Below, one piece after another: positions 47,946 to 61,815 of a stretch of 64,000 bases of DNA (its first letter is position 1; every line of letters begins with the position of its first letter). Below the pieces are notes generated by a model. It saw only the letters and a program-made list of their open reading frames with translations. It had not been told where the DNA came from and made no database searches. The position numbers and the translations under genes were made by a program. Origin of the DNA: a virus; UHGV virus genome UHGV-0179803; one strand, written 5' to 3'.

Positions 47946-47967
47946 TCTTAAAAAGAAGGAGAGAGTT

Positions 47968-48162: not shown

Positions 48163-48170
48163 GGTGCAGC

Positions 48171-48383: not shown

Positions 48384-48384
48384 T

Positions 48385-48729
48385 ATGAAAAACCGTACAC
48401 ATCCGCTCTATCTTCGAGAACGTAATAGTATTGCTATGGTACTGTGCGATATCTTCAATGTTTCAGATCCGTACGATACTCACAATATGTGGGAGACAGC
48501 ACGCATCCTGTTCCCAACACCAGTGATTGTAGCCATCTCAAAGAATGGCTTGGTGAAAAGAGCATGGGATAAGTTTGGGCAGTCTTACGTCTGGGCTGAT
48601 CAACTGGGGTGCTGGTTTGAAGAAAGAAACCCTGTTAGCCTGAACAATGAACGTATGCGGGGAATTGATATCATCACGGGCAAAAACATTCGCCTGAAAG
48701 GCGAGATTGTTTTCTGGCTTCCACAATAA
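48385..48729 (+). CDS. hypothetical protein
   Basis: 114 aa. Confidence 0.5.
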   Translation: MKNRTHPLYLRERNSIAMVLCDIFNVSDPYDTHNMWETARILFPTPVIVAISKNGLVKRAWDKFGQSYVWADQLGCWFEERNPVSLNNERMRGIDIITGKNIRLKGEIVFWLPQ

Positions 48730-48741
48730 CAGGAGAGATCA

Positions 48742-49083
48742 ATGAAGAATCAAACAGTAACAATGCAATGGGTAGATGTTGATGGCGTGGAGAACATGCC
48801 AATCGGTGTATATTTCGTATGTATGCGGGACTGTAATGGTCTGCAACAATATGGTGTATGCGAAGTTGTTATGGCTGGGCAGGGCAAATATGCACATAAA
48901 GTTGGCGTGATCAGTGGTCAATTTTATTTTGAATTCCCACCAATCGTAGCATACATGGTTATCCCAGACTATGTGCCGATTCAGGACGGAAAACGCCGTT
49001 GCCCACACTGTGGTAGCACTGATATCGGTATGGCGCGGGACGATTTATTCTGCTTCTGCTGCCGCCGTTTCCTGGTGGAATAA
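48742..49083 (+). CDS. hypothetical protein with C-terminal zinc-ribbon
   Basis: 113 aa; CPHCGS...CFCCRR pattern at C-terminus. Confidence 0.5.
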   Translation: MKNQTVTMQWVDVDGVENMPIGVYFVCMRDCNGLQQYGVCEVVMAGQGKYAHKVGVISGQFYFEFPPIVAYMVIPDYVPIQDGKRRCPHCGSTDIGMARDDLFCFCCRRFLVE

Positions 49084-49093
49084 GGAGTGTACT

Positions 49094-49288
49094 ATGTTCG
49101 AGCTTAAATCTTGCACAATCGTAGCACCAGGGGATCGTATCCGTATCCCAGGCCGTCACGAAATCCTACAGGTTAAAAGCATCGAGTCTGTAGGTAACCG
49201 TGTTCTCCTGTTCAAATTTGAAAATGGACACCAGGTGTACATGAGAATGAGAAGCAAAGTGTACATTGACAGGGGTGCTAAAGAATGA
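49094..49288 (+). CDS. hypothetical small protein
   Basis: 64 aa from ATG after TAAGGAG. Confidence 0.45.
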   Translation: MFELKSCTIVAPGDRIRIPGRHEILQVKSIESVGNRVLLFKFENGHQVYMRMRSKVYIDRGAKE

Positions 49289-49611
49289 ATGAAGTATGGG
49301 AAATCTGTGTAGACGTAGCAGGAATCACGCTTATAGGTGCTCTGGTTATTGCTCTGGCGCTGGTAGGATACAAGATGGCACTTCTGCCTTTCCTGGAAGC
49401 ATTCAGCCTGTGTCATTGCTGGCGTAGAGCATATGGACCACAACCTGTAAAAGACTGGTTCACTTTGTACCGTATTGCACTATCTTACACGTTTGATCAT
49501 TCACGCTTAAACTGCATTGAAAGCTATCATGCTGATGGTTGGTGGTGGGTAGGATTATTCAGATGGGAGGTGACAGAGGTAACTCCGAAACGAATGCTTA
49601 AGAAAAATTGA
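49285..49611 (+). CDS. membrane protein
   Basis: 108 aa; hydrophobic N-terminal helix (VAGITLIGALVIALALVGY); ATGA overlap. Confidence 0.5.
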   Translation: MNEVWEICVDVAGITLIGALVIALALVGYKMALLPFLEAFSLCHCWRRAYGPQPVKDWFTLYRIALSYTFDHSRLNCIESYHADGWWWVGLFRWEVTEVTPKRMLKKN

Positions 49612-49939
49612 TTTTAGAATTATAAAAGTTTTAGATGACAAGGGGAAATCTGTAATAGATTTTCCCTTATTTATCAGATATTTGCAGATATTTGAAAATC
49701 ATTAGAAACTTAGGTAATTAGGAGCGTACGAAAATGGATTTTTTAAAAGCATAAGCAATCATTTAGCAAATTAGCCAAATAGATTTTAGCCTATTGCTAT
49801 TGTGTATGCATGTATTTGCATATGCCTTGCACATATCCCCACACACCTCTTCCCACATTCCCACACAGTTCTCGGTTGACCCGCCAATCTCCCCTCCACA
49901 ACTCTCCCAGTAATTTCCTTAAGTACTCGATCTGTTTTT

Positions 49940-50047
49940 CAAAATCGAAATCGGATTCTGAAAATCTCGACAGCTTTTCTCCTCGGTTCTCGATAGGTTT
50001 TTTATTTTCGATTTTGGATTCTGGATCTCGGTCTGGTTCTGGCTAGG
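49940..50047. repeat. direct repeats of a GG(A/T)TTCTG-type unit
   Basis: tcggattctg, cggttctcg, tggattctgg, cggtctgg, tggttctgg within about 110 bp of non-coding DNA. Confidence 0.5.
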
Positions 50048-50185
50048 CCTGCGCCTGAGGAACGAAAGCACTTTTTTATTTTTGAAAGTGGATTTTGAAT
50101 TTCTATATAGAAAAAATTTACCCCCTACCATTTTTGGTAGATAGTCACGGTACGTAATTAGCCTGCTAACTAAATTTTAGATAGT

Positions 50186-50380
50186 TTCATGAGTGATTAT
50201 CACCGTTACTATAAATTGCCGTAACTATAAATCACCGTGCGTTACTATTTTAATTTCACCATGCAACTATAAATCACGGGCCGTTATTATTTATATAGAA
50301 AACTATTACTAACCGTGCGTTATTACCTCAATTTGCTTAGGTTACTATTAATCACCGTAAGTAACTATTTTTTAAATGAT
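50186..50380. repeat. iteron array, ~9 units at ~20-bp period (candidate origin or regulator-binding array)
   Basis: Units such as GTAACTATAAATCACCGTG, GTTACTATTTTAATTTCACCATG, GCAACTATAAATCACGGG, GTTACTATTAATCACCGTAAG spaced 15-22 bp. Confidence 0.65.
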
Positions 50381-50399
50381 AATCATTCTCAAAATATAT

Positions 50400-50700
50400 T
50401 GCGTGCATCCCCGGTGATTGTCTCCCGGCCCCTGGTGCCCCGGCTTGATTATATAATAACAGATCCGGCCCCCATGTCAACAGCTTTTTTAGAAAAATAT
50501 TAGTTACAACATCCTGGCGCCACCTGGCAGGGCCATCATGACCATGATCCGGTCCGGCGCTTGCGCCCTGGTCCATCCTCCGCACATTAGTTACAGCATT
50601 CCAACGACCGATCCCCGATAGTCTGCAACCTGGCGGGGCCGCCTGGTCCACTGGACCGCCTCCCCTGGTCCGGTGGGGAGTCCGGCTTGCAATTCAAAAT
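50400..50700. other. GC-rich island of palindromes rich in CCTGG
   Basis: GGTCCACTGGACC palindrome, CTCCCC...GGGGAG and GGCGCTTGCGCC inverted repeats, about seven CCTGG sites in about 250 bp, inside otherwise AT-rich non-coding DNA. Confidence 0.5.
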
Positions 50701-50732
50701 GTGATCTGTGTCAACCTTTCACCATGTAGCTA

Positions 50733-50760
50733 TTGATCAGGTTACGGCCTAGTGTATTCT
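50733..50760 (+). promoter_or_regulatory. sigma70-like promoter of first micro-gene
   Basis: TTGATC-16 nt-TATTCT. Confidence 0.45.
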
Positions 50761-50828
50761 ATAGGTGAAGGGAAACAAAGGGGAAACGGAAAGCAAAACA
50801 CCAGGCCGCAAGGCAGGAGGAAAATAAA

Positions 50829-51005
50829 ATGAAAGGCATGGTTAACAACAACAACGTAAAAGAGAGGGAAATTATTGTTAATGGTCGTGAGATTGACAAT
50901 AAACGCCGGAAAGCTATGCGTGATGCCCTGGTCAACTGGTTGGATTATGAAAAAATGATGGTAATGGCAGCGGGTGCCGCAGCTGGTGAATTTAACCACA
51001 GATAA
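50829..51005 (+). CDS. micro-gene product (58 aa)
   Basis: ATG after AGGAGGAAAATAAA; below ORF-track cutoff. Confidence 0.4.
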   Translation: MKGMVNNNNVKEREIIVNGREIDNKRRKAMRDALVNWLDYEKMMVMAAGAAAGEFNHR

Positions 51006-51021
51006 CCACAGGGGGGCAAAG

Positions 51022-51216
51022 GTGTTAGCTTATAATCTTCCAGGCCGTCGCCGTACGGTTGCCGACCAGGTAACGGCAAAGGCAGACGTAACAATCAACA
51101 ACGGGCAGGGCCTTTACAAGTTTAAACGGGGGAACAGCTATACGATCCAGTTTCTTAACCGTTGTGCTTTAACACCTGGTCAGATCAACCATTGGTTTAA
51201 AGCTAAAAAATTTTAA
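51022..51216 (+). CDS. micro-gene product (start uncertain)
   Basis: GTG after AGGGGGG; ORF-track frame 50974..51216. Confidence 0.35.
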   Translation: MLAYNLPGRRRTVADQVTAKADVTINNGQGLYKFKRGNSYTIQFLNRCALTPGQINHWFKAKKF

Positions 51217-51224
51217 AAAATTAG

Positions 51225-51255
51225 TTGACACCAGAAAGAAATAAAGTATTATAGA
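51225..51255 (+). promoter_or_regulatory. sigma70 promoter
   Basis: TTGACA-17 nt-ATTATA followed by conserved GAAAGCAGTA box. Confidence 0.6.
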
Positions 51256-51301
51256 TAGTGAAAGCAGTACACAAGGTTAACAAAATATAAGGAGTAACAT
51301 C

Positions 51302-51703
51302 ATGAGCGCTTTTAACACTGATTTCGATTTCTCTGGTCTGGAAGAAGTTCGCGATCTTCGTAACTGCCGCCGCGAAAACGGTTTTTATAAATCTCTGGAC
51401 CTGGTGGCACTGGACCACAAAATGGACCTGGAAGAAGTAGCAACGATTCGTTTCTACCAGTCACCGCGCGGTAACACTGTTTACTGTGTAGTATGGGTAC
51501 ATGAAGCAGGGCACGAATTTTATGCCACTGCTGGCGGGAAAGCTGGTGGCTATGGTTACGATAAAGAGGAGGCCGCATTACGGGAAGCTATCGAGGCGAT
51601 GGGTGTAAAAGCTGGCGATTATGCTCACCCTGAAAAATTTTTAATCCAGCTTGCTCGCTACTTCGGATATGAAAAAGCTAAAGTGATTGAAGCACACGCA
51701 TAA
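51302..51703 (+). CDS. hypothetical protein
   Basis: 133 aa; AAGGAG upstream. Confidence 0.55.
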   Translation: MSAFNTDFDFSGLEEVRDLRNCRRENGFYKSLDLVALDHKMDLEEVATIRFYQSPRGNTVYCVVWVHEAGHEFYATAGGKAGGYGYDKEEAALREAIEAMGVKAGDYAHPEKFLIQLARYFGYEKAKVIEAHA

Positions 51704-51744
51704 GCTGCCTTTTAGATGGCCCCCTGGTGGGGCCATTGATAAAG
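51704..51744 (+). repeat. conserved intergenic hairpin element, copy a
   Basis: GCTGCCTTTTAGATGGCCCCCTGGTGGGGCCATTGATAAAG directly after a stop codon. Confidence 0.5.
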
Positions 51745-51780
51745 GTAACTTGGGGCAACAATAACCGAGAGAAAGAAAAT

Positions 51781-52215
51781 ATGAAACGTTTACCACGCTG
51801 GATCCGCTTTATTAATAAACTTGCCGCAGATGAAAAAATCCAGGCTATGCATAAAGATAACCGCGAACGCCGTGCTGCCTTACGAGATTATCGCCGCATG
51901 TTGGCAAAGTTAGCCAATAAAAATGGCGTTCTTAAACCGTTCCGCAAAGTGATCCACCTGGTCGCTATGGGAGCGCCTAAGGTGGCAAACGTTCCAAACG
52001 TCCATAAGATTGATGACCGCGACGTTGTAAGAGATATTGATAAAGATTTTTCTCCGAAGGCCATCAATCAGCGGATCAACAGCTGCAAAAATAAGAAAGA
52101 TCTTGATAATTTGTTAGATAGCCTCGACGCTTTAGGGTGTGATTATGATTTCTTAGATGACAAGATTAATAAAAAATACCGCGAATTGGCTGGTTATCGC
52201 GTCAACCGGATTTAA
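51781..52215 (+). CDS. hypothetical basic protein
   Basis: 144 aa from ATG (MKRLPRW) after GAGAGAAAG. Confidence 0.5.
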   Translation: MKRLPRWIRFINKLAADEKIQAMHKDNRERRAALRDYRRMLAKLANKNGVLKPFRKVIHLVAMGAPKVANVPNVHKIDDRDVVRDIDKDFSPKAINQRINSCKNKKDLDNLLDSLDALGCDYDFLDDKINKKYRELAGYRVNRI

Positions 52216-52428
52216 CATATCAGAATAGTTGGCCCTGGTGGATCCGATCCGTGCACGGTCCAGGGTATGCCCGAAAACCTCCCCCATTACGCCGCTACGC
52301 CTGTTTTGAAGGTGTGGCGGTGTAGTTGCACCTCTTTGCAAAACACCTCGCCATAATACTTATTTGATGCCTTATTTTCGATACGCTCAAATAATGACCA
52401 ATCAATCGCCCCCACCATGATTTTTTTC

Positions 52429-52456
52429 TTGCAATCCCCCAATGTATGAATACAAT
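52429..52456 (+). promoter_or_regulatory. sigma70-like promoter
   Basis: TTGCAA-16 nt-TACAAT. Confidence 0.5.
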
Positions 52457-52502
52457 AACAATTGAAGGCAGTATTAACAAAAACACAAGAAGGGGAAACA
52501 AA

Positions 52503-52673
52503 ATGGATAAAATCTATTACGTTGTTTATCGCGGCCTTAATGTTGCCTGGTACGACAATTTGGCTGAGGCAATGGAAGAGGCGCACGACCGTTACGACCT
52601 GGGGCGTAACCGCCTTGAAGTGGTGGATAGCGACGGCGTGATCTATTGGTGTAGTGAGGATCTGGAATACTGA
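52503..52673 (+). CDS. micro-gene product (56 aa)
   Basis: ATG (MDKIYYVVY) after AAGGGGAAAC. Confidence 0.45.
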   Translation: MDKIYYVVYRGLNVAWYDNLAEAMEEAHDRYDLGRNRLEVVDSDGVIYWCSEDLEY

Positions 52674-52684
52674 AAAAAAAATAG

Positions 52685-52715
52685 TTGACACGACCGTTTG
52701 AAAGTGTAGTATATA
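52685..52715 (+). promoter_or_regulatory. sigma70 promoter
   Basis: TTGACA then AGTATA/TATATA at 16-19 nt. Confidence 0.6.
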
Positions 52716-52768
52716 AACCGAAGGGGAAAGAAATTTCCCAGAGGTAAAAAACAAAGAGGATAAAAATC

Positions 52769-53044
52769 ATGGCTATCATCGAAAAAGTAAACGTTCCAGC
52801 CACTTATAATAAAGGTTATAACGGTTGGAAAAATTACAATCAGTGGAACGTTGCACTGTGGATCAATAACGACGAAAGTTTATACTTCTTTGCCCTGGGC
52901 TTGATTAATGAGTGTGGCAATAAAGACGCGGCAGCTGATTTGATGGTTTACCGCTTGAAAGAAGAGGGGATCACTCATACGCCTGATGGGGTGCCTTACA
53001 ATAAAACTAACATCCGCGCCGCTATGGTCGGAATGCCGCACTGA
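52769..53044 (+). CDS. hypothetical protein
   Basis: 91 aa; AAGAGGA upstream. Confidence 0.55.
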   Translation: MAIIEKVNVPATYNKGYNGWKNYNQWNVALWINNDESLYFFALGLINECGNKDAAADLMVYRLKEEGITHTPDGVPYNKTNIRAAMVGMPH

Positions 53045-53120
53045 TAGCCGCCTTACCCTGGGGCCGTGGCAGCGCCCCATGAATAAGGTTACTACCCCCA
53101 CAATAACAGGAGGTAACATT

Positions 53121-53231
53121 ATGAACATTATCGCGGCAATCATTGTAGGCTATGCCCTCTTTTTGCTGGGCTTGCACCTGGCGGCAGTTATCAAAGGCCT
53201 GATCGATTTCTTTAAAAAAGATGAAAAATAG
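53121..53231 (+). CDS. small membrane peptide (36 aa)
   Basis: MNIIAAIIVGYALFLLGLHLAAVIKGLIDFFKKDEK; ATG after AGGAGGTAACATT. Confidence 0.4.
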   Translation: MNIIAAIIVGYALFLLGLHLAAVIKGLIDFFKKDEK

Positions 53232-53233
53232 TG

Positions 53234-53261
53234 TTGACAGGTGAGAGAAAATAAATATACT
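53234..53261 (+). promoter_or_regulatory. sigma70 promoter
   Basis: TTGACA-16 nt-TATACT followed by GAAAGCAGTAAAC box. Confidence 0.6.
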
Positions 53262-53311
53262 TAACCATGAAAGCAGTAAACGAGATTAATAAAACACAGG
53301 AGAAAAAGATC

Positions 53312-53722
53312 ATGAAAACTACTTTCCGTAATGCAAATGGTTTAACTGCATTCGCTTTAGCTTGTGGATATGTTCAAATGGTAGAGGGGCGGGATCGTGA
53401 AATGGTGGATCTGTTTAAAGCCCACGGTTGCTACCATGTTCGCGCTTTTAATGCTGATGGCGAGCGGCAAGCATGGTTTAGTGTGCCATCTTTAACTGAT
53501 GCCCGTCGCCATTGGAAAGAACTGGTAAAACTGATTTTCGGTGCACGCATTGCACAAGTGAAACGCTGCAAACGTTACGAAGTGCGCCACGTCCTGGACC
53601 TGAGAGGGGAGGCAGTTTACCAGGTTATCTATCGCTACGATGGGGAGTCTCGCCACGTCGGCTACTGTGAAAACGTGGACGCGGCATGGATGATTGCACA
53701 CCGCGACTATGTAAGCCTATAG
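53312..53722 (+). CDS. hypothetical protein
   Basis: 136 aa from ATG (MKTTFRNANG) after CAGGAGAAAAAG. Confidence 0.55.
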   Translation: MKTTFRNANGLTAFALACGYVQMVEGRDREMVDLFKAHGCYHVRAFNADGERQAWFSVPSLTDARRHWKELVKLIFGARIAQVKRCKRYEVRHVLDLRGEAVYQVIYRYDGESRHVGYCENVDAAWMIAHRDYVSL

Positions 53723-53806
53723 GTTATTTTTCGGTGGCCTGGGTATTGACACCGGGCCATCTATAAAGTAACCTAAAGATCCACACAACGAAGGGGGGGA
53801 ACAATC

Positions 53807-53899
53807 ATGAAAAACTATTCTCACTATTTGATCCGTCGTGATGTTATGATTATGGCCCTGGGCTACCTGGTTATGTTTGCTTTTCGTGTAATGCTGTAA
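53807..53899 (+). CDS. small membrane peptide (30 aa)
   Basis: MKNYSHYLIRRDVMIMALGYLVMFAFRVML; GAAGGGGGGG upstream. Confidence 0.3.
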   Translation: MKNYSHYLIRRDVMIMALGYLVMFAFRVML

Positions 53900-53917
53900 A
53901 ATAAATTAAAAAATTAG

Positions 53918-53946
53918 TTGACACAGTAGCAAAAATAAGTAAACTT
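53918..53946 (+). promoter_or_regulatory. sigma70 promoter
   Basis: TTGACA-17 nt-AAACTT followed by GAAAGAAGTAATTAG box. Confidence 0.5.
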
Positions 53947-53990
53947 AAAACTGAAAGAAGTAATTAGTAAACCACAAAGAGGAAAACATC

Positions 53991-54350
53991 ATGAAACGCA
54001 TCAATAAGGCTATGGCTAACGCAATCCGTGCTTATGTAGTTGACAGCTTAAACTTTGACGACATGGAACACGACAACGACGTTGAGGAACTGAAAGCACG
54101 CTTTGAAGCTGAGCATTTTGACGGCTATTATATCCGTCGCTTTAACGGCAACCGTGTAAAAGCAATGGCCGACTGGTTAGCAGGACTGCCGAGCGGTGTA
54201 GACATTGACTTCTGTAATGATGACATTTTAAACCGCTTGCGTGAGTTCGGAATCATTGACGAAAAAACTAAAGAAGACACTAAAGATCGCTACATTGACG
54301 AATGGTTTGAACTGATGGCGCGGTTTTATGTGGAACTAGCATACAAATAA
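53991..54350 (+). CDS. hypothetical protein
   Basis: 119 aa; AGAGGAAAAC upstream. Confidence 0.55.
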   Translation: MKRINKAMANAIRAYVVDSLNFDDMEHDNDVEELKARFEAEHFDGYYIRRFNGNRVKAMADWLAGLPSGVDIDFCNDDILNRLREFGIIDEKTKEDTKDRYIDEWFELMARFYVELAYK

Positions 54351-54388
54351 AATAGCTTGCTTTTAGATGGCCTCGAAAAAAAAAATAG

Positions 54389-54417
54389 TTGACACGGGGC
54401 CATCGATAAAGTAAACT
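54389..54417 (+). promoter_or_regulatory. sigma70 promoter embedded in conserved hairpin element
   Basis: TTGACA-17 nt-TAAACT; the spacer is the GGGGCCATCGATAAAG arm of the recurrent hairpin element. Confidence 0.55.
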
Positions 54418-54455
54418 AACACACAGTAAGAAGTAACAACAAAGGAGAAAACATT

Positions 54456-54794
54456 ATGAACGCTAACATTGAACTGATTGCACGTCGTGCCGCCCTGGTT
54501 GCAGCTATCGAACAATTGAACAATAAAATTGAAAACTTTGAAATTGATCCAGATGACTACGAAAACGACTACGATGATTTACTAGACGAAGGCGGTGCGG
54601 TAGTGGTAGGCGGTTGCGAATTTCTCCCGTCTAGAATCCTCCGCGAACTGGATCCGATTGCTTATCGTTGCGGCCTGAATGATTATATAGACAACATTGA
54701 TGTAAGCGATGACGCAAACTATTGTGATTTGTGTGACGATCTGGCTGACCTTGAGGCAGAACTAGGGGAAGTCGAGGAAGCGCTACGTAACTAA
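54456..54794 (+). CDS. highly acidic small protein (candidate DNA mimic)
   Basis: 112 aa; about a quarter Asp/Glu, few basic residues; AAAGGAGAAAAC upstream. Confidence 0.55.
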   Translation: MNANIELIARRAALVAAIEQLNNKIENFEIDPDDYENDYDDLLDEGGAVVVGGCEFLPSRILRELDPIAYRCGLNDYIDNIDVSDDANYCDLCDDLADLEAELGEVEEALRN

Positions 54795-54836
54795 GTTGCC
54801 TTTTAGATGGCCTCCCTGGCGGGGCCATCCATAAAG
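54795..54836 (+). repeat. conserved intergenic hairpin element, copy c
   Basis: GTTGCCTTTTAGATGGCCTCCCTGGCGGGGCCATCCATAAAG directly after a stop codon. Confidence 0.5.
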
Positions 54837-54873
54837 ATAATTTAGTGTAACCACAATAAAAAGGAGTTACGCA

Positions 54874-55122
54874 ATGGCAAAATTAATTAACTTTGCAGCG
54901 GTGGACCTGGTAAAAGCTGATTGGTATTATAGCAATGGTCGCGCCGTTTGGTGGCGTGAAGGGGGTGCCGAGGGCAAAGTAAAAGCGCGTATGATTAAAG
55001 GTTACCATTTAGATCGCCCTGTAATTCGTATCAATGGGAAGCTGGTCGCTTTCATGCATATCAAAGCGGTTGACGATATTGAAAAAATTTTGAACGTCAA
55101 CTATTTTAAAATGTTAGGGTGA
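54874..55122 (+). CDS. hypothetical protein
   Basis: 82 aa; AAAAGGAG upstream. Confidence 0.5.
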   Translation: MAKLINFAAVDLVKADWYYSNGRAVWWREGGAEGKVKARMIKGYHLDRPVIRINGKLVAFMHIKAVDDIEKILNVNYFKMLG

Positions 55123-55211
55123 CATGCCAGGCGGGGGCCGTTAGTCCGGCCCCCTCTATCCAACCAGGAGGAGGTGACACTATGCCCAGTTAACAACAGA
55201 GAGGAAAATAT

Positions 55212-55550
55212 ATGGACCTCATGACGTGCATACTCGCATTTATTGCAATAGGTGTAGTCTGGAACAAAGTAAAAAACCAGAGTTATTACGCCAGATGCCA
55301 GGCTTTTCGGGTGAATCCGTGGGATATTGATCCGGGTGCTGATTATGTTATCAAGTACCAGGACCGACACGGCAAACAATATGTAACGCCGTCGCCGATA
55401 CCGGCCTATTGCTTGCTGGAATACACAGACAAGATAAAACAGGCAGGTTTTTTAATTGTTGACCTGTGGGGCCGCCACGGTGACGCGAAAAAATTTATTA
55501 AAGCAGTGGCTGCAAATATTGCAGCACAAGAAAACGACGATGAAGAGTAA
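55212..55550 (+). CDS. hypothetical protein with N-terminal hydrophobic helix
   Basis: 112 aa; GAGAGGAAAA upstream. Confidence 0.5.
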   Translation: MDLMTCILAFIAIGVVWNKVKNQSYYARCQAFRVNPWDIDPGADYVIKYQDRHGKQYVTPSPIPAYCLLEYTDKIKQAGFLIVDLWGRHGDAKKFIKAVAANIAAQENDDEE

Positions 55551-55564
55551 CAGGAGCGCCGATT

Positions 55565-55786
55565 ATGAACATGGTAAACTTTGAAAAAATTACTAAGCGC
55601 AATCATTTATCTGACGAACTACCGGAACGCCGCCAGCGTAACAACAAGCTGAATAAACCGCGTCGATTTGGTAAACTGTGGCGCAACTATTACGACCGTA
55701 ATTTACGCCGCCTGTTACTTGAACGTGAACGCCAACAAATGAGATACGCAGCACGGCGGGAACGGATGAAAGCAGACGAAATTTAA
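55565..55786 (+). CDS. highly basic small protein (Arg-rich)
   Basis: 73 aa; Arg/Lys-rich, nucleic-acid-binding-like composition. Confidence 0.5.
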   Translation: MNMVNFEKITKRNHLSDELPERRQRNNKLNKPRRFGKLWRNYYDRNLRRLLLERERQQMRYAARRERMKADEI

Positions 55787-55792
55787 CCGATA

Positions 55793-55818
55793 GGCCCCCA
55801 GGTGGGGGCCTTTCTTCA
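55793..55818 (+). terminator. intrinsic terminator
   Basis: GGCCCCC-AGGT-GGGGGCC followed by TTTCTTCATTT. Confidence 0.6.
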
Positions 55819-56026
55819 TTTGTAACATAGCGCAATCAATTTTAAGGCCCTTAAAACGCCCTACAACGCAAAGAAGCCTAAAGGTGAACAATTGCATTAC
55901 CCGCCCCCAATTAGTAATTTGTGATCAAGATCTCACAAAAATTAATAGGTAAAAACCTTATTTACTTCTTATAGGATCTGCATACCATTTTAATTGAAAG
56001 AAGAAACACAGCAGGAGGAAAATAAA

Positions 56027-56236
56027 ATGGTCTACTGTGATTATGCCAATGATGCACTGGGCCGCTATGAGAAAGGCCGTTATTATGACCTGAGCGAAAT
56101 AATTGATAACGAGGATTATTACATCGATAAGAATGATGATCATCTAGTCGTTATCCATCGCGTAGTCGATCCGATGTGCTTCGTGGACGTTAGCCCGATT
56201 GTGGCACGCTTTGAAATTATGGTATTGGAGGCTTGA
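56027..56236 (+). CDS. hypothetical small acidic protein
   Basis: 69 aa from ATG (MVYCDYAND) after AGGAGGAAAATAAA. Confidence 0.5.
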   Translation: MVYCDYANDALGRYEKGRYYDLSEIIDNEDYYIDKNDDHLVVIHRVVDPMCFVDVSPIVARFEIMVLEA

Positions 56237-56238
56237 TT

Positions 56239-56340
56239 ATGTTACTTGAAATGCTGATGAATCCGATTATTTCTATGGGCCTGATCTTTGTAGTTGTCTG
56301 CCTGGTTGTTGGTTTTATCTTGAGCAATATGCGGAAGTAA
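56239..56340 (+). CDS. small membrane peptide (33 aa)
   Basis: MLLEMLMNPIISMGLIFVVVCLVVGFILSNMRK; ATG after GGAGG. Confidence 0.35.
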   Translation: MLLEMLMNPIISMGLIFVVVCLVVGFILSNMRK

Positions 56341-56367
56341 AAATTTTTAAAAAGCTATGAAAAAGTG

Positions 56368-56396
56368 TTGACACGGCCCCCCGGTTTGGTATTCTA
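56368..56396 (+). promoter_or_regulatory. sigma70 promoter driving a non-coding purine-rich transcript
   Basis: TTGACA-16/17 nt-TATTCT; no ORF for ~250 nt downstream. Confidence 0.55.
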
Positions 56397-56399
56397 TAG

Positions 56400-56540
56400 C
56401 TGAAAGGAAAAGAAAGGGAACAAGAAGGAAAGTTCCGGGAGCGGGAAAAGAAGGGTAAGGGAAAAGCCTTGAAGCATAGCTAACCGAAGGACCGAGGGAG
56501 CCGGGAGCGGCCCTAAAAGATACTCAAAGAAGTAAAAAGA
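56400..56540 (+). ncRNA. candidate GGA-rich purine-tract non-coding RNA
   Basis: ~140 nt almost entirely A/G with repeated GGA motifs and short hairpins (CCG-GGAG-CGG, GCCG-GGAG-CGGC); promoter upstream, no ORF, next promoter at 56543. Confidence 0.3.
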
Positions 56541-56542
56541 AG

Positions 56543-56571
56543 TTGACAAGGTAACACAAAGCAGTAAAATA
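56543..56571 (+). promoter_or_regulatory. sigma70-like promoter
   Basis: TTGACA-16 nt-TAAAAT; purine-rich leader continues to the next start codon. Confidence 0.5.
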
Positions 56572-56649
56572 AAGTTGAAAGGGAAGGATGCAGGGAGCAA
56601 CAAGGACCGGATAAACCGGGGGGAGCTGAAAGAAAACGAGGAAAATAAA

Positions 56650-56736
56650 ATGAAAGACTACTACAAAGCAAACGAATATGAAAGGGTAGCAGATTTCATT
56701 AAAGAAATGTTAAAAGGTCTGAATAATAAAAAATGA
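56650..56736 (+). CDS. micro-ORF (28 aa)
   Basis: MKDYYKANEYERVADFIKEMLKGLNNKK; ATG after CGAGGAAAATAAA, same start context as neighbouring genes. Confidence 0.3.
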   Translation: MKDYYKANEYERVADFIKEMLKGLNNKK

Positions 56737-56744
56737 GGTGGGGT

Positions 56745-56858
56745 ATGAAAAACAAGCAAGAAAGGCCCGAAGATGACAAATTTACATGGCGTGAGCTTTT
56801 AAACATCTGGTACATCATTTACGGGCAACATTATAAACACAGAGGAGGGAGGTTATAA
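56745..56858 (+). CDS. micro-ORF (37 aa)
   Basis: ATG after GAGGTGGGG; followed by hairpin GGGAGG-TTATAAA-CCTCCC. Confidence 0.3.
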   Translation: MKNKQERPEDDKFTWRELLNIWYIIYGQHYKHRGGRL

Positions 56859-56905
56859 ACCTCCCACCACAAAGAAAGAAACAACAACCAAGCGAGGAAA
56901 ATAAA

Positions 56906-57133
56906 ATGAGCAACGTTATCAAGTTCCCCATGAATCGTGTAAAACCATCTAAAGGTGTGGTTAATTTCGATAATAAGGTTTACCGCATGGCCTGGATCGT
57001 TAGAAACAGCGACAATAAGGGCGATATCTGGGTAGAGGCATTCAGGCGGGAGGTTGATGCTATTTTTTCAAGAAGTGTAAGGGGAGGCCGGATCATTAGA
57101 GGATTTTTCAAAGCGGCACCGGAAGAGGTTTAA
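56906..57133 (+). CDS. hypothetical small protein
   Basis: 75 aa; CGAGGAAAATAAA upstream. Confidence 0.5.
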   Translation: MSNVIKFPMNRVKPSKGVVNFDNKVYRMAWIVRNSDNKGDIWVEAFRREVDAIFSRSVRGGRIIRGFFKAAPEEV

Positions 57134-57138
57134 AAAGG

Positions 57139-57166
57139 TTGACAAATCATAAAAAACAAGTAGACT
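57139..57166 (+). promoter_or_regulatory. sigma70 promoter
   Basis: TTGACA-16 nt-TAGACT followed by GAAAGCAGTAAAC box. Confidence 0.55.
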
Positions 57167-57208
57167 GATAATCGAAAGCAGTAAACAATTTAAAAGGAGA
57201 ACATAATC

Positions 57209-57403
57209 ATGAAACACATCAACATCGTAAACCTGAAAAAAGTTTGCAAAATTGCAATTTTTGTGGAAGGTGTCGAGGCTTATCGTTGCGACTACGAAGA
57301 TTATAAAGATGCGTTAGCTTTCCTCCTGGACGTGGCACACCACAACAATCTAGACTATGAAGCCATCGAGGCAGCCGAAAAAGTTATGGCAATTGCCGCA
57401 TGA
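57209..57403 (+). CDS. hypothetical small protein
   Basis: 64 aa; AAGGAGAACATAATC upstream. Confidence 0.5.
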   Translation: MKHINIVNLKKVCKIAIFVEGVEAYRCDYEDYKDALAFLLDVAHHNNLDYEAIEAAEKVMAIAA

Positions 57404-57450
57404 GTTAGCTTTTAGATGGTCCACGATGCGAAAGTGGATCATCAATAAAG
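57404..57450 (+). repeat. conserved intergenic hairpin element, copy d (with compensatory changes)
   Basis: GTTAGCTTTTAGATGGTCCACGATGCGAAAGTGGATCATCAATAAAG; arms changed but still complementary. Confidence 0.5.
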
Positions 57451-57484
57451 AAAACTCAACCACGAAGCAAGAAGGAGAAACATC

Positions 57485-57715
57485 ATGGACCTTATGACAG
57501 CTGTTGCAACATACGACTATAAAAACTTTTTTGATGTAGTCATGATTAAAAAACCAGCTAACGCCCGGATGCCTGCAAATGGTTACGGTAAAAAATTACC
57601 GACTAACTGGATGATCAATTTCGAGGGCCGTATGCGCCGCGTCTATGTTGATATCTGTGGCAATTCTGGACACAGGTACATCATGGTTAAAGGCCGTAAA
57701 TTTACTATCATGTAA
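57485..57715 (+). CDS. hypothetical small protein
   Basis: 76 aa; AAGGAGAAACATC upstream. Confidence 0.5.
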   Translation: MDLMTAVATYDYKNFFDVVMIKKPANARMPANGYGKKLPTNWMINFEGRMRRVYVDICGNSGHRYIMVKGRKFTIM

Positions 57716-57776
57716 CACGATTTCAACCAGGGCCGGAAGTCCGGCCCTATCATCAACCAACAAAGGGGATCAAAAA

Positions 57777-57896
57777 ATGAAAGACAAGCCTCGACCTTGC
57801 AGCGATACAATTTACCATCTGATAGCATGGTGTGAGATCCTGGCAATTGAAGCCCTTATGGGTGTTGGCATTTACTTTATAGCGATCTATAATTAA
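57777..57896 (+). CDS. small membrane peptide (39 aa)
   Basis: ATG after AAAGGGGATCAAAAA; C-terminal hydrophobic helix. Confidence 0.35.
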   Translation: MKDKPRPCSDTIYHLIAWCEILAIEALMGVGIYFIAIYN

Positions 57897-57929
57897 CGCG
57901 AAAGGAAATAGCCATGAGGAATAAAAGCA

Positions 57930-58286
57930 ATGAGAATCATCGACCTGTTAAACCGTATGCCGGACGTCAACGAGATGGCCCCCGATATGAACGAAATTGA
58001 TCGAGAAGCTGCCGAAAAAGCGGCCCGTAAAATTAAATGCCGTGGGGCCGCTATCGGTGCGGTGCTTTTTGGCCTTGCTTATGCTCATATTGATTTGGTC
58101 CATAACATTTTCCACAATGCACCGATCAAAATCGTGTTAGCCTGGATTGTCTGCTACGTGTGCGGTGAGTACATTTACCCGGTTGCCAAAAAATTGGCCC
58201 CGTGGGCCGTCCTGGGTGCGGTGATCTATTATGTTGCGCCTGTGATTATTGCAATCGTAAAACATTACACAGCGCAACAAATGTAA
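57930..58286 (+). CDS. membrane protein
   Basis: 118 aa; three hydrophobic segments. Confidence 0.5.
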   Translation: MRIIDLLNRMPDVNEMAPDMNEIDREAAEKAARKIKCRGAAIGAVLFGLAYAHIDLVHNIFHNAPIKIVLAWIVCYVCGEYIYPVAKKLAPWAVLGAVIYYVAPVIIAIVKHYTAQQM

Positions 58287-58296
58287 GAGATTCTAA

Positions 58297-58321
58297 GGGC
58301 CGCAAATAAGCGGCCTTTTTT
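58297..58321 (+). terminator. intrinsic terminator (copy 1 of an exactly repeated hairpin)
   Basis: GGCCGC-AAATAA-GCGGCC followed by TTTTTTAT. Confidence 0.7.
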
Positions 58322-58547
58322 ATGGCCCCGCCTCCTGTGTTTAAAATCCTTCCTGTAAGCCCCGCCATTGAGATTTACCCGCAAGATAAGCAAGTGTAAA
58401 GCCCCACCATTCCAGGCCGTTGCAGGCCCTGCCAGGTGCCTAAAAATCGATTTATACGCTTCCACTATTGCCAACCTTCAAAGCGATCCAGACTTAAAAG
58501 TGTTGCCCCTGCAAAATGAGAATAGTTATCATCTTATAAATTTTTCT

Positions 58548-58575
58548 TGCAATGTGGTCTGTTGTGTGTATACTT
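58548..58575 (+). promoter_or_regulatory. sigma70-like promoter
   Basis: TTGCAA-16 nt-TATACT; followed by GGGGAATACCTCCCC hairpin in the leader. Confidence 0.5.
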
Positions 58576-58625
58576 ATTCTTGAAAGGGGAATACCTCCCC
58601 CACCAACAACAAAGGAGTTAAAATT

Positions 58626-58907
58626 ATGTTCCCTAACCTATTCCCTGGTGCGGTTATCAATTTTGAAGCCCGTTATTTGCAAGCTGGTATGATTATCATT
58701 CGAAATGATCGCCCATTGAAATTAACTAGGGTAGAATACAATGAAGGCCAGGCCCCTGGCGAGGAAACTGTAGACTACTTCTTCATGTATGCAGATGAGG
58801 ATCCAAATGATAACACTGGCGAATGGTTTAACTTCTTCCTGCCGGACGAAATGATTAAAGTGCTTTATTATCCTGGTAACCGTTATCCGCTTCATGCGCT
58901 TTTCTAA
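58626..58907 (+). CDS. hypothetical protein
   Basis: 93 aa; AAAGGAG upstream. Confidence 0.55.
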   Translation: MFPNLFPGAVINFEARYLQAGMIIIRNDRPLKLTRVEYNEGQAPGEETVDYFFMYADEDPNDNTGEWFNFFLPDEMIKVLYYPGNRYPLHALF

Positions 58908-58923
58908 AAAAAATCTTCATAAA

Positions 58924-58947
58924 GGCTTGCAATGTGCAGGCCTTTTT
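58924..58947 (+). terminator. intrinsic terminator overlapping a promoter-like site
   Basis: GGCTTGCA-ATG-TGCAGGCC followed by TTTTT; TTGCAA-17 nt-TACTAT spans the same bases. Confidence 0.5.
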
Positions 58948-59002
58948 CCTACTATAAAGGTGAAGAAAGAAGTAAGGCCAACAGTTAGAGGAGTAACAAA
59001 TT

Positions 59003-59212
59003 ATGGGCATGGGAAGAGATAAACGTAAAGCGGCGAAAGCAAGAAAAGCGGCAGCAAAGGCCGCACCTGTTAAAGCTGTACCGTACCACGTCAATATAAA
59101 CAACCTGGAAGTAATGAACAATCCGGCCCCTATGGAAGAATTTAACGATGCGGATTGGAGGGCGGTAGCAAGAATGGTTATCCGGCTTGAACGCCTTGCC
59201 AGGGAAGAGTAA
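59003..59212 (+). CDS. hypothetical small basic protein
   Basis: 69 aa; N-terminal Lys/Ala/Arg-rich segment. Confidence 0.5.
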   Translation: MGMGRDKRKAAKARKAAAKAAPVKAVPYHVNINNLEVMNNPAPMEEFNDADWRAVARMVIRLERLAREE

Positions 59213-59233
59213 AAAAGTTAGAAAAAAAAACGG

Positions 59234-59261
59234 TTGACACAGAATAGAGAAGGCCTATAAT
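59234..59261 (+). promoter_or_regulatory. consensus sigma70 promoter
   Basis: TTGACA-16 nt-TATAAT followed by GAAAGAAGTAATTAG box. Confidence 0.65.
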
Positions 59262-59311
59262 TAAAGTGAAAGAAGTAATTAGAAACAACAAAATAAGAAG
59301 AGGTAAGTATC

Positions 59312-59578
59312 ATGAAAATGGTAGACGTTAAAGGCATCAAGAACGTTAAAATGCAAAAAAATACTCCCGCAAACGTTCTTAAAAAAGCCCTGAGCATCCT
59401 AGAAGCACACAACGCAAAAACGGTGCATCCTGTTAAATTAAATTGCGGTTATGGCTATAAATACAATATTAATAAAGACTGGAGGCTGTTAAACCGTGAT
59501 GGCGAATTTAAAGATTGGTTAATTGTTGAGCACTTGGAGTATAATCGTCTGGTTGGCGTAAAAGGCGCTCATAAATAA
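59312..59578 (+). CDS. hypothetical protein
   Basis: 88 aa; AGAGG upstream. Confidence 0.5.
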   Translation: MKMVDVKGIKNVKMQKNTPANVLKKALSILEAHNAKTVHPVKLNCGYGYKYNINKDWRLLNRDGEFKDWLIVEHLEYNRLVGVKGAHK

Positions 59579-59623
59579 CGCCAGAACATGAAAACACAGC
59601 ATAAAACACTAAGAGGGAACGCC

Positions 59624-59803
59624 ATGATTAGAGAATCCCAAATACTTTACGAAAATGGCAACTACTGGATCCTTGAGGCTAAACCGGGGGTTTACCAGGT
59701 GATGGTAAAAGGTTTAACGCATTCGACTTGCGATAGCGCCTACGCAGATTTTGATCTAGCATTGGCCCGGTGTGAGTACCTGGCACGAAGAGAAAACGCA
59801 TAA
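59624..59803 (+). CDS. hypothetical small protein
   Basis: 59 aa from ATG after AGAGGGA. Confidence 0.45.
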   Translation: MIRESQILYENGNYWILEAKPGVYQVMVKGLTHSTCDSAYADFDLALARCEYLARRENA

Positions 59804-59809
59804 AAGAAA

Positions 59810-59834
59810 GGCCCCACCCAGGGGCCTTAACTTT
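59810..59834 (+). terminator. hairpin, probable terminator
   Basis: GGCCCC-ACCCA-GGGGCC followed by TTAACTTT. Confidence 0.5.
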
Positions 59835-59858
59835 ATGAAAAAAAATCTGAAAAAATAG

Positions 59859-59887
59859 TTGACACCTTGCTGGGATAGTATATTATT
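59859..59887 (+). promoter_or_regulatory. sigma70 promoter
   Basis: TTGACA followed by AT-rich -10 region and GAAAGCAGTA box. Confidence 0.5.
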
Positions 59888-59929
59888 AAATTGAAAGCAG
59901 TACTAAACCACTTGAAAGAGGAAAAGATC

Positions 59930-60412
59930 ATGAAAGCGTTCAAATATGTTTTAGCGGCCCTGGCGATGGTTATCGGTGTAAATGTGAATGCTGGCGGTTT
60001 TAGAGTCGAGGCCCCCGAGCATATCAATCCGGTTTATGTGAAAGAAATTTTAATGAATTGCGCCGGGGAAATGGTTGCACCTGATGCGGTGTTTAATCCT
60101 GATGCACCGATCAACGTTAAAAAAGGTTGGCTGGCTAAAGCTGACAAAGAATGTAAAACATTGGTAAATAATGTTATCGTTCACGCCCTGATTGTTGACC
60201 TGATTATCAAGAAAGGCCCTGAAAATATGAAGGGCATGGACGAAGAGGAGTTTAAAGAGTATTTCTATAACGAAGAAATGAAAGTGGAGAATTACCATTT
60301 TGATGAAAACGGTTATGAAGATGTTAAAGCTAACTTGAAAGATGTTTACAATCTTGCGCTTGAAAATCCTAAAGCCGCCCATGCTATCAAGGTGCGAATG
60401 ATGGGAAAATAA
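59930..60412 (+). CDS. secreted/periplasmic protein
   Basis: 160 aa from ATG after AAGAGGAAAAG; signal-peptide-like MKAFKYVLAALAMVIGVNVNA. Confidence 0.55.
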   Translation: MKAFKYVLAALAMVIGVNVNAGGFRVEAPEHINPVYVKEILMNCAGEMVAPDAVFNPDAPINVKKGWLAKADKECKTLVNNVIVHALIVDLIIKKGPENMKGMDEEEFKEYFYNEEMKVENYHFDENGYEDVKANLKDVYNLALENPKAAHAIKVRMMGK

Positions 60413-60417
60413 AAGTA

Positions 60418-60445
60418 TTGACAAGCTGCCAGGTTGTTGTAAGAT
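60418..60445 (+). promoter_or_regulatory. sigma70-like promoter
   Basis: TTGACA-16 nt-TAAGAT. Confidence 0.55.
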
Positions 60446-60489
60446 GTAAATAAAAGAAGTACCACACCAAATAAGAGGAGTACCAAATC

Positions 60490-60669: not shown

Positions 60670-60721
60670 GGCGGGGCCGATACCCCGCCAGCTATCCACC
60701 AAATCGAAAGGAGTGATTATT

Positions 60722-61793: not shown

Positions 61794-61815
61794 TATAACT
61801 GACGAAATAATAAGA

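Follow-up and report, generated by a model that had tools for sequence, protein, structure and literature searches.

Related hairpin elements

Hairpins lying between genes are known from several systems. In phage T7, mutually similar irregular hairpins (R0.3, R0.5, R1, R1.1 and R1.3) stand directly behind early genes on polycistronic transcripts of the host polymerase and are proven sites of RNase III cleavage. REP elements are intercistronic stabiliser hairpins of the host with a different consensus; placed between co-transcribed genes, they could block 3' exonucleases and raise upstream expression. Intrinsic (Rho-independent) terminators are G+C-rich hairpins found right after the stop codon, with a U-rich tract expected within 0-2 nt of the stem. 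The T4-type phages carry promoter-early stem-loops, PeSLs (Arbiol et al. 2010, PMC2839356; Comeau et al. 2014, PMC4122927), and promoter-coupled terminators are DNA stretches that end one transcription unit and promote the next (Fletcher et al. 2026 preprint, 10.64898/2026.08.19.745784).

The locus compared here with these systems lies in the window, i.e. the whole stretch of 64,000 nucleotides that was analysed, from a phage that is rV5-related and Vequintavirinae-like. It contains five copies of a short element that probably marks the end of the message of one gene and, in some copies, starts the next one. The element shares its size and setting with the PeSLs, as in both a cassette of about 50-100 nt recurs between small early genes and reaches from the stop codon to the Shine-Dalgarno sequence. 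Degraded “half” copies are known from both, and both go together with insertions, deletions and swaps of gene cassettes among close relatives. As in the PeSLs, a G+C-rich stem-loop is joined to a strong sigma-70 promoter clearly in copy 3, probably in copy 2 and not in copies 1, 4 and 5. The differences relate to the phage lineage, which is not T4-type, and to the construction of the element. The PeSL stem-loop is located just upstream of an AT-rich region and the -35 hexamer (PMC4122927), whereas the helix of the present element encloses the -35, and its lower part pairs an upstream T-rich tract with the spacer and the -10 region. Moreover, no U-rich tail is present and copies lacking a promoter are conserved between genomes.

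The promoter-coupled terminators also resemble the element in that the stem-loop DNA lies over a -35 of the same strand, as in copies 2 and 3 and in the copies of rV5-like phages. They possess a T-tract directly before the -10, and their 3' ends have been mapped about 10 bp ahead of the start site (Fletcher et al. 2026), whereas here ATAAAG occupies the position of the T-tract and three copies have no promoter. The T7 regions R0.3-R1.3 were folded for a comparison of architecture with the hairpin copies, which revealed no sequence similarity; only the architecture is held in common, namely a G+C-rich upper stem (predicted at about 9-13 bp in T7), interrupted pairing below it and the lack of a U-tail. 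Some of the T7 sites adjoin promoters but are not themselves host promoters, and their internal loops are larger.

Identification and location of the copies

A covariance model scan of the whole window with the filters off detected all five copies on the + strand, scoring 57-75 bits against 12.7 bits for the next + strand match, although these scores are inflated by construction, the model having been built from the same five copies. Independent support comes from the copies of one rV5-like phage, which were outside the seed alignment and score 50-59 bits. The 13-mer CTTTTAGATGGYC is found with 0 mismatches at 51709, 54360, 54800 and 57409, and the right arm GGNYCATCNATAAAG at 51730 (1 mismatch), 53754, 54397, 54822 and 57436; the paired-arm pattern gives 2 matches where 0.02 are expected by chance. 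The arm and model matches confirm the copies that the first-pass annotation had placed at 51704, 54795 and 57404. Another one, proposed at 50483, does not belong to the family: it has no covariance-model match even at E<=10, and its resemblance is lost in the relative L110/L040. The copy at 53730, previously regarded as degenerate, is in fact the best-scoring of all (75 bits) and also bears TTGACA in its loop.

The copies lie in the gaps that separate the stop codon of one small early ORF from the start codon of the next; they start at the stop codon or 0-8 nt after it, and 20-45 nt remain between their end and the following ATG. Their length of 58-74 nt exceeds the extent originally assigned, as the stop codon and the bases that follow ATAAAG belong to the lower helix. 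The flanking ORFs match only PHROG families of unknown function. The search of the 50-60 kb region against Rfam gave no match with E<=10 at the elements, and in the window its gathering score was reached by three tRNAs only.

Three of the copies have no sigma-70-like -35/-10 promoter. Copy 1 (51699..51756, + strand, 57 bits) folds into 20 bp at -27.2 kcal/mol (z -3.5); the TAA stop codon of gene 51302-51703 is part of its lower helix, and its upper helix is GAUGGCCCC/GGGGCCAUU with the loop CUGGU. The downstream gene starts at 51781 without a promoter of its own, and the promoter scan of 51252-52429 revealed no promoter-like site. Copy 4 (54790..54848, + strand, 60.3 bits, 22 bp, -25.2 kcal/mol, z -4.1) has the arms GAUGGCCUC/GGGGCCAUC, identical to those of copy 3, but a different loop, CCUGGC. 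It separates gene 54456-54794 from gene 54874-55122, which likewise has no own promoter: no promoter-like site was found from 54417 to the start at 54874, and the sole nearby match (first hexamer at 54902, 9/12) is inside gene 54874-55122. Copy 5 (57399..57462, + strand, 64.7 bits, -24.6 kcal/mol, z -6.8) is located between genes 57209-57403 and 57485-57715, and its upper helix has covaried to GAUGGUCCAC/GUGGAUCAUC. The complementary change of both arms reported earlier for this copy is real, and the orthologues in L109 and L108, with GGUCCGC/GCGGAUC, add a further compensatory A-U to G-C swap. The motif CCTGG, earlier taken as a constant part of the loop, is common among the copies and not universal, being absent from the one at 57409.

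RNA structure and selection

The helix into which each copy folds is 20-25 bp long and made up of three segments; it is interrupted by a conserved 2x3 internal loop (UA opposite NAU), above which stands a G+C-rich upper helix of 9-10 bp. Folding energies of the five copies lie between -24 and -32 kcal/mol, and comparison with shuffles gives z-scores from -3.5 to -7.6. That the family is selected for its structure, as had been proposed along with a covariance analysis across related phages, is borne out by 31 copies from relatives. Compensatory changes on both sides were identified in 16 of 23 pairs, and pairing is retained in 87.7% of cells versus 34-52% with the partners slid; none of 500 shuffles reached any pairing or covariation measure. 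The lower A/U-rich helix covaries too (pairs 4-73, 6-70, 7-69, 9-67 and 10-66), so that selection acts on the total helix length and not only on a G+C clamp.

Among the non-Watson-Crick pairs read on the sense strand, G.U outnumbers A.C by 80 to 26 overall and by 49 to 0 in the core helices, where G.U is spread over 9 pair columns and A.C occurs in none. That all such pairs in the core are sense-strand G.U suggests an RNA structure; the bias by itself cannot separate RNA from single-stranded DNA of the sense strand.

Promoter fusion

Copy 2 (53717..53780, + strand, 75 bits; -31.6 kcal/mol, z -7.6) lies between gene 53312-53722 and a 30-codon ORF at 53807. Its -35 TTGACA (53746-53751) occupies the loop and the top of the helix, and is followed by a 17-nt spacer, made of the right arm and ATAAAG, and by a -10 TAACCT (53769-53774) matching the consensus at 3/6 bases; it is a probable promoter. 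In copy 3 (54350..54423, + strand, 65.8 bits; -24.4 kcal/mol, z -6.3), between genes 53991-54350 and 54456-54794, the loop consists of an A-tract and TAGTTGACAC, with the -35 at 54389-54394, the spacer CGGGGCCATCGATAAAG and the -10 TAAACT at 54412-54417. The promoter scan scores it 10/12 with a 17-nt spacer, which bears out the earlier proposal that the right arm at 54355 serves as promoter spacer.

The fusion first described for this one copy is real but not single. It is present in two of the five window copies (clear in copy 3, only probable in copy 2) and in three of four copies of an rV5-like phage, and appears to be a core property of the family. In the promoter form the -35 lies within the helix, the 3' arm of which serves as the spacer; in all copies ATAAAG is found directly upstream of the -10 position. 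The same site may occur with or without the promoter, depending on the lineage: the one with the signature TTTTTCGGTGG...CCATCTATAAAG has TTGACA in the present lineage and not in rV5-like phages, so the hairpin does not depend on the promoter.

Termination at the hairpins

No U-tract follows the stem on either strand in any of the five copies. The tail after the stem is CNAUAAAG, and the flanks are T-rich on the 5' side and A-rich on the 3' side on both strands, the reverse of the polarity of intrinsic terminators. A terminator scan of both strands listed none of the five copies, and the true terminators of the region, at 55792 and 61812, are unlike them. The identity of the element as an intrinsic terminator was rejected on these grounds, in agreement with the first-pass annotation, which had pointed to the A-rich tail. 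As consensus scanning reveals no separate promoter for the genes behind copies 1, 4 and 5, read-through at these copies would be required. Together with the lack of a U-tract, this indicates that the hairpins are not efficient terminators.

Attenuation by the hairpin, one of the roles suggested earlier, is possible. As a full account, a non-canonical attenuator or “promoter-coupled” terminator, which partly stops or pauses incoming polymerases and insulates neighbouring cassettes, is rather unlikely. In its promoter-bearing copies, a polymerase on the overlapping promoter would aid release despite the missing U-tract. The PeSL stem-loops of T4-type phages, found at the same type of junction, have been tested as terminators (PMC2839356), and in the elements of Fletcher et al. 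(2026; 10.64898/2026.08.19.745784) the DNA of the stem-loop overlaps the -35 of the following promoter, the activity of which was shown to raise termination. The corresponding overlap is present in copies 2 and 3 and in the rV5 copies. However, the tract after the stem is not U-rich, three copies have no promoter that could aid release and precede genes dependent on read-through, and a selected lower helix of about 12 bp is unexpected in a terminator.

Conservation and shuffling among relatives

The same element, so far unannotated, is present in at least 121 rV5-like phages in GenBank, mostly with TTGACA in the loop. Its core is nearly identical between phages whose RIIA proteins are only 53% identical, and the conservation of the near-invariant CUUUUAG...AUAAAG is above what pairing alone requires. 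Instead of processing, this may reflect demands of the promoter, a protein that reads the sequence, or gene conversion among the copies. A structured RNA bound by such a protein (a phage regulator or nuclease, or a host factor), which reads the internal loop and its flanks, is improbable as the main role. In its favour, the CUUUUAG/CNAUAAAG core and the bases U15, A16, A60 and U61 hardly vary across lineages at about 50% protein identity, unlike the neighbouring pairs, which covary. Against it, no candidate for an RNA-binding protein emerged, the flanking genes matching PHROG families of unknown function only, and the invariant bases overlap the promoter spacer and UP-like positions, a possible cause of their conservation.

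Synteny with the relatives breaks at 51765-51776, at about 52675 and at about 53224. L108 and L109 have an insertion after copy 1, and in L110 copy 4 has been relocated, with its downstream gene, behind a different gene. Such indels and exchanges of cassettes between close relatives are associated with the element. A role at the DNA level only, in which the copies are recombination linkers that shuffle cassettes (as proposed for the PeSLs), cruciforms or operators without any RNA function, is nevertheless quite unlikely. It agrees with the synteny breaks, which fall at elements or promoters, and with an identical hairpin variant at non-orthologous sites (copy 4 of the window and copy 1 of L109). 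Also consistent with it, the loop segment GA10TAGTTGACACG of copy 3 is almost the same as that of an ordinary promoter of the same genome (52675-52697). Recombination does not explain the compensatory changes or the bias of 49 G.U to 0 A.C, and the shuffling may result from the repeats without being their function. An arm spacing varying from 3 to 21 nt and arms that covary, with no single sequence kept, speak against a dimeric DNA-binding protein and disfavour the regulator binding site on double-stranded DNA suggested at first.

It is very improbable that a phage-modified polymerase uses the copies without a -35 as promoters, with an activator replacing the -35 as in T4 middle promoters and the PmSLs known in phage nt-1 (PMC4122927): ATAAAG precedes a loosely -10-like hexamer in all copies (GTAACT, ATAATT, AAAACT), but the L110 hexamer, GCAGTT or AAAACG, is not -10-like while the left-flank pairing is kept, and an activator bound to DNA would not need the complementary left arm.

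Proposed function

Among the roles suggested in the first-pass annotation, processing of the RNase III type fits the anatomy best, because the helix has 20-25 bp and a central internal loop, its lower part is under selection and read-through is needed. The cleft of RNase III holds about 22 bp (PMC6212723). As in T7-type RNase III sites, the copies are irregular hairpins with about two helical turns and an internal loop at the centre, and copies 1, 4 and 5 stand between cistrons with no promoter between the flanking genes by consensus scanning. Selection over about 22 bp of helix, together with a fixed internal loop, is also more than a REP-type exonuclease block needs.

With confidence falling a little short of even, we favour a composite cassette, the RNA hairpin of which is an intercistronic processing and 3'-stabilising signal with a predicted RNase III cut. 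As the polymerase leaves the upstream early gene, the transcript would fold into the 20-25 bp helix, composed of the lower helix with the stop codon, the 2x3 internal loop and the G+C-rich upper helix. Instead of efficient termination, the host RNase III, reading about two turns of double-stranded RNA, would cut at or near the central internal loop, and the remaining stem would protect the 3' end of the upstream message and separate the cistrons. At the DNA level the same sequence can also serve as a sigma-70 promoter for the downstream gene, with the -35 TTGACA in the hairpin loop, the right arm and ATAAAG as the spacer, and a -10 TAAnnT. The -35 has been gained or lost site by site with the hairpin kept.

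A wider reading is possible at best and is put forward tentatively. The element would be a dual-coded module of about 60 nt, a sigma-70 promoter as DNA and a predicted RNase III-type processing and stabilising hairpin as RNA. Gain or loss of the loop -35 would switch the junction between a “new transcription unit” and a “processed operon”, leaving the end of the upstream mRNA undisturbed, and the repeats of the module would drive the shuffling of cassettes across Vequintavirinae-like phages.

If so, this large group of coliphages, of which the rV5-type phages include therapeutic candidates, would pack the end of an early message and the next start into about 60 bases, and edits to a hairpin loop could change its operon structure. 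The element carries the notion of regulatory cassettes as shuffling units beyond the T4-type phages, and provides a natural test case for the recently proposed coupling of promoter and terminator in a form without the T-tract. The feature could also be added to the annotation of the GenBank genomes mentioned above. The literature search on these phages found no cleavage, transcript-end or stability data. The parent of the characterised phage rV5 is V5, and the deposited V5 genome (DQ832317.1) contains the element, which should put the key experiments within reach.

Further points count against the processing reading. The sequence rules of RNase III are loose, and the match to the T7 sites is anatomical only. 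Terminating ribosomes would repeatedly melt the lower helix, in which the stop codon is contained.

A diverged relative

A tentative member of the family, with the same layout, is located at 53042..53098 (+ strand), behind gene 52769-53044. It was not detected by the covariance model scan of the window, and its fold reaches -20.2 kcal/mol with a z-score of only -1.7. Its 3' half, CCCCATGAATAAGGTTAC, is similar to that of the five copies and its left half is different. The L040 orthologues carry a compensatory change from CCUUA/UAAGG to CCUCA/UGAGG, and also GCUUUUA/UAAAAGC.

Copies of the hairpin element

Through a covariance model built from an alignment of 17 copies, drawn from three related viral contigs as well as the window, and applied to the whole window with filters off, five + strand copies of the hairpin element have been identified at 51699–51756, 53717–53780, 54350–54423, 54790–54848 and 57399–57462 (copies 1 to 5, respectively). 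Their scores are 57–75 bits, the next + strand score being 12.7 bits. On the + strand, the left arm CTTTTAGATGGYC is matched exactly at 51709, 54360, 54800 and 57409, and the right arm sequence at 51730, 53754, 54397, 54822 and 57436; the paired-arm pattern gave two matches, compared with 0.02 by chance. The five copies, together with the selection on their structure, bear out the family of hairpins behind early genes proposed in the first-pass annotation. The hairpin layout given there stands, but its extent does not, the real length of 58–74 nt exceeding the description. The copy at 53730, described as degenerate, is instead the best-scoring of the five. The supposed degenerate copy at 50483 is rejected: the model gives no match there (filters off, E ≤ 10), the left arm GATGGCC is missing and the resemblance is not kept in the related contigs L040 and L110. 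A variant at 53042–53098, where the model finds nothing and the fold z-score is only −1.7, is regarded as a tentative homologue.

No known RNA family in Rfam matches the element, its arms do not figure among the promoters and terminators tabulated in the rV5 genome paper, and a full-text literature search found no prior description of these elements. The metagenome scan gives many chance matches in other sequence, and only those confirmed by the model have been used. The element is unannotated, widespread and real. Most of the first collection scan was taken up by an unrelated match of 49 nt with exact spacing, which recurs in 104 small viral contigs (4–15 kb) of IMG/VR, is represented by CTTTTAGATGGATAACCTAGCTTATGATTATCCGACTTCATCCATAAAG in contig L001 (465–513), and lies outside the hairpin family.

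Anatomy and selection of the structure

The element consists of three helices, 20–25 bp in total, and is organized as follows: (i) outer and lower helices, in which the stretch between the stop codon and CUUU, both included, pairs with AAAG and the next 6–10 bases; (ii) a conserved internal loop in which UA (5′ strand) faces NAU (3′ strand); (iii) a G+C-rich upper helix of 9–10 bp; (iv) a terminal loop of 3–21 nt. The fold energies of the five copies lie between −24 and −32 kcal/mol, and their z-scores between −3.5 and −7.6.

As the first-pass annotation supposed, covariance in related phages shows that the structure is under selection. On 31 copies, rV5-like ones included, 87.7% of cells are paired, against 34–52% after sliding the 3′ partners by 1–3 columns; 16 of the 23 pairs have changed on both sides, and none of 500 shuffles reaches any pairing measure. 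The measures were also run on the smaller 17-copy set. Compensatory changes comprise GGUCCAC/GUGGAUC to GGUCCGC/GCGGAUC at orthologous sites, GAUGG/CCAUC to GCUGG/CCAGC in contig L110, and a further arm pair, AAGCC/GGCUU, in contig L108 (8037). Since the lower A/U-rich helix also covaries, the total helix length is selected, beyond a G+C clamp.

The model derives from the + strand, so its scores on the two strands are no evidence of strand, and the count of G·U pairs and A·C mismatches was used instead. An A·C mismatch on one strand is a G·U pair on the opposite strand. There are 80 G·U pairs versus 26 A·C mismatches overall, and 49 versus 0 in the core helices, where they are spread over nine pair columns versus none. 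This excess places the selection on the sense strand, and the selected structure is most simply RNA.

Overlap with promoters

The promoter scan revealed near-consensus sigma-70 promoters, A-tract-TAGTTGACA-N16-TAnnnT, ahead of many small early genes. Copy 3 carries an A-tract and TAGTTGACAC in the loop and a −10 TAAACT; its 17-nt spacer is formed from the right arm and ATAAAG, and it scores 10/12, which upholds the earlier claim of a promoter fused to the hairpin at 54355, with the right arm as spacer. The loop segment is almost identical to the ordinary promoter at 52675–52697. In copy 2, a spacer of 17 nt separates the TTGACA of the loop from the −10 TAACCT; since this −10 is weak, the promoter is only probable.

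In the early region of the rV5-like Escherichia phage MiataMamis the element occurs four times, all confirmed by the model at 50–59 bits, and three of these copies read TTTTTAGATGGCC-TTGACA-CCAGGGCCATCAATAAAG-TAAACT. This form was found by blastn in 121 GenBank records, all rV5-like and V5 among them, at about three places in each genome and almost never under an annotated feature. The consensus of the distal UP-element is AAAWWTWTTTT, and the left lower arm of the rV5 form, AAATTTATTTT, matches it, so the left flank, rich in T, and the spacer and −10 region, rich in A, pair with one another as well as serving the promoter.

Copies 1, 4 and 5 have no −35, and their orthologues, present in two to four related contigs, lack it as well but keep the helix with compensatory changes. 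The site with the signature TTTTTCGGTGG...CCATCTATAAAG possesses a −35 in the lineage of the window and none in rV5-like phages, and the copy 3 site has two different −35-bearing loops among close relatives. By these comparisons, the helix is what stays constant and the −35 is optional, the hairpin being independent of the promoter.

Most early promoters of Cronobacter phage CR3 (Certrevirus) have a G+C-rich hairpin within the spacer (TTGAC-GGGGCC...GGCCCC-ATAAT), so the merging of hairpins with early promoters seems to be a general tendency in this group of phages. By eye, a hairpin lies between the −35 and −10 in about 12 of 17 early promoters of CR3 (JQ691612.1, 74901–95287), as in TTGACGGGGCCAGCGATAGGCCCCATAAT; two promoters have the −10 inside the hairpin loop.

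Proposed function

The transcript would fold into an RNA helix of roughly two turns, interrupted near its centre by an internal loop, and the hairpin would act as a processing signal between cistrons needing co-transcription. The mechanism is most likely that of a T7-type RNase III processing signal, the likeness residing in the helix of about two turns, the central loop, the selection over the full length, the intercistronic place and the several conserved copies behind early genes. In T7, RNase III processing leaves a 3′ stem stabilising the upstream message. The T7 RNase III sites, folded for comparison, share the plan of the element but no sequence homology with it. The RNase III cleft accommodates about 22 bp (PMC6212723). 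By this analogy, an RNA-processing role of the element is plausible.

The chief competing explanation is that the hairpin partially terminates or attenuates transcription, as suggested by analogy to the promoter-early stem-loops (PeSLs) of T4-type phages and to promoter-coupled terminators, in which a polymerase bound at the promoter increases termination at a stem-loop overlapping it (Fletcher et al. 2026). Copies 1, 4 and 5, which have no promoter, lack such help. Their downstream genes possess no promoter-like site of their own in the promoter scan, and transcription must therefore read through.

An operator for a dimeric DNA-binding protein is disfavoured, as the gap between the arms varies from 3 to 21 nt and the arms differ yet stay complementary (GATGGCC, GATGGTCCAC, GCTGGCC, AAGCCCCC). 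Also considered, and counted with the rejected readings, is a DNA hairpin promoter of the N4 type, which a virion RNA polymerase would use; the stems of N4 hairpins are short and their loops fixed at 3 nt, and none of the seven large ORFs scanned in the window matches an RNA polymerase family. An intrinsic terminator is rejected on either strand for want of a U-tract: the upper stem is followed by CNAUAAAG, and the T-rich 5′ flank and A-rich 3′ flank on both strands are the reverse of a terminator. The terminator scan skips the copies, yet finds canonical terminators at 55792 and 61812, in agreement with the earlier statement that these hairpins are not canonical terminators.

Evolution and relation to known cassettes

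Synteny between the window and its relatives breaks at elements or at promoters. Copy 1 is followed, within about 15 nt, by the start of an insertion of about 0.7 kb in L108 and of about 1.2 kb in L109. Copy 4 and its downstream gene stand behind a different gene in L110, one upper-hairpin variant occurs at non-orthologous sites (copy 4 of the window and copy 1 of L109), and the arms of copies 3 and 4 are identical. Such behaviour fits PeSL-like modular shuffling. The PeSL cassette is the closest known kind, but its stem lies upstream of the promoter, whereas the helix of the element encloses the −35; the element also lacks the U-rich tail and belongs to another phage lineage. Promoter-coupled terminators share with it the overlap of stem-loop and −35 and differ in having a T-tract.

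At the end of the 0.7-kb insertion in L108, which starts directly after the copy 1 orthologue, an element of the same architecture with other arms is located (8037–8098: AAGCCCCC-TATTGACAC-GGGGGCTT, then TATAAAG and TATGAT).

The phage and its early region

Megablast of the first 25 kb of the window against GenBank gives no match, and 51–58 kb gives only short matches to rV5-like phages; by sequence, the phage is without a close GenBank relative. Its RIIA protein has 53% identity with RIIA of rV5-like Vequintavirus phages, and one early protein has homologues at 34–45% identity in Certrevirus and related phages. The window encodes tail genes, three tRNAs, helicases, a primase and a DNA polymerase, and from about 46 kb on small + strand genes lie in a row. 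All genes flanking the element copies match PHROG families of unknown function.

The Dcm/EcoRII site CCWGG is about three-fold over-represented in 44000–64000 (76 observed versus 25.6 expected from base composition), often at the apex of G+C-rich hairpins, several element copies included. A G+C-rich non-coding block at 50400–50720, with seven CCWGG sites versus 0.4 expected and several GGCC/CCGG hairpins, contains the rejected 50483 site. It is flanked by a − strand consensus promoter (50480–50453) and the first + strand early genes, and may be a divergent control region of the early cluster.

Other hairpin and RNA features

A second kind of hairpin is located behind stop codons at 55130–55165, 57729–57765 and 60669–60705. 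The stems are G+C-rich (GGGGGCCG/CGGCCCCC, GGGCCGG/CCGGCCC and GGCGGGG/CCCCGCC) and are followed, with no U-tail, by CTATC(C/A)-ACCA and then a ribosome-binding site. The long intergenic region 52216–52500 holds a very stable 17-bp hairpin with several G·U pairs (52286–52326; −30.8 kcal/mol for the containing 56-nt fold window), and the block around it has 88% identity in L108.

Downstream of the promoter at 56368, a 255-nt segment (56396–56650) has no convincing ORF, no Rfam match and a second promoter inside (56543). It is 77% purine, with 16 GGA motifs (6.3 per 100 nt versus 1.4 in the surroundings), and may represent a leader or a non-coding RNA with many GGA or Shine-Dalgarno-like motifs. 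L110 has two similar segments and L108 one more.

In MiataMamis, a G+C-rich hairpin opens many early 5′ untranslated regions, and a CA-rich tract (CACCAACCACAAAGAGG) lies between it and the start codon, for example at 7093–7182, 10892–10981 and 14016–14090; these leader hairpins may be 5′ stabilisers.
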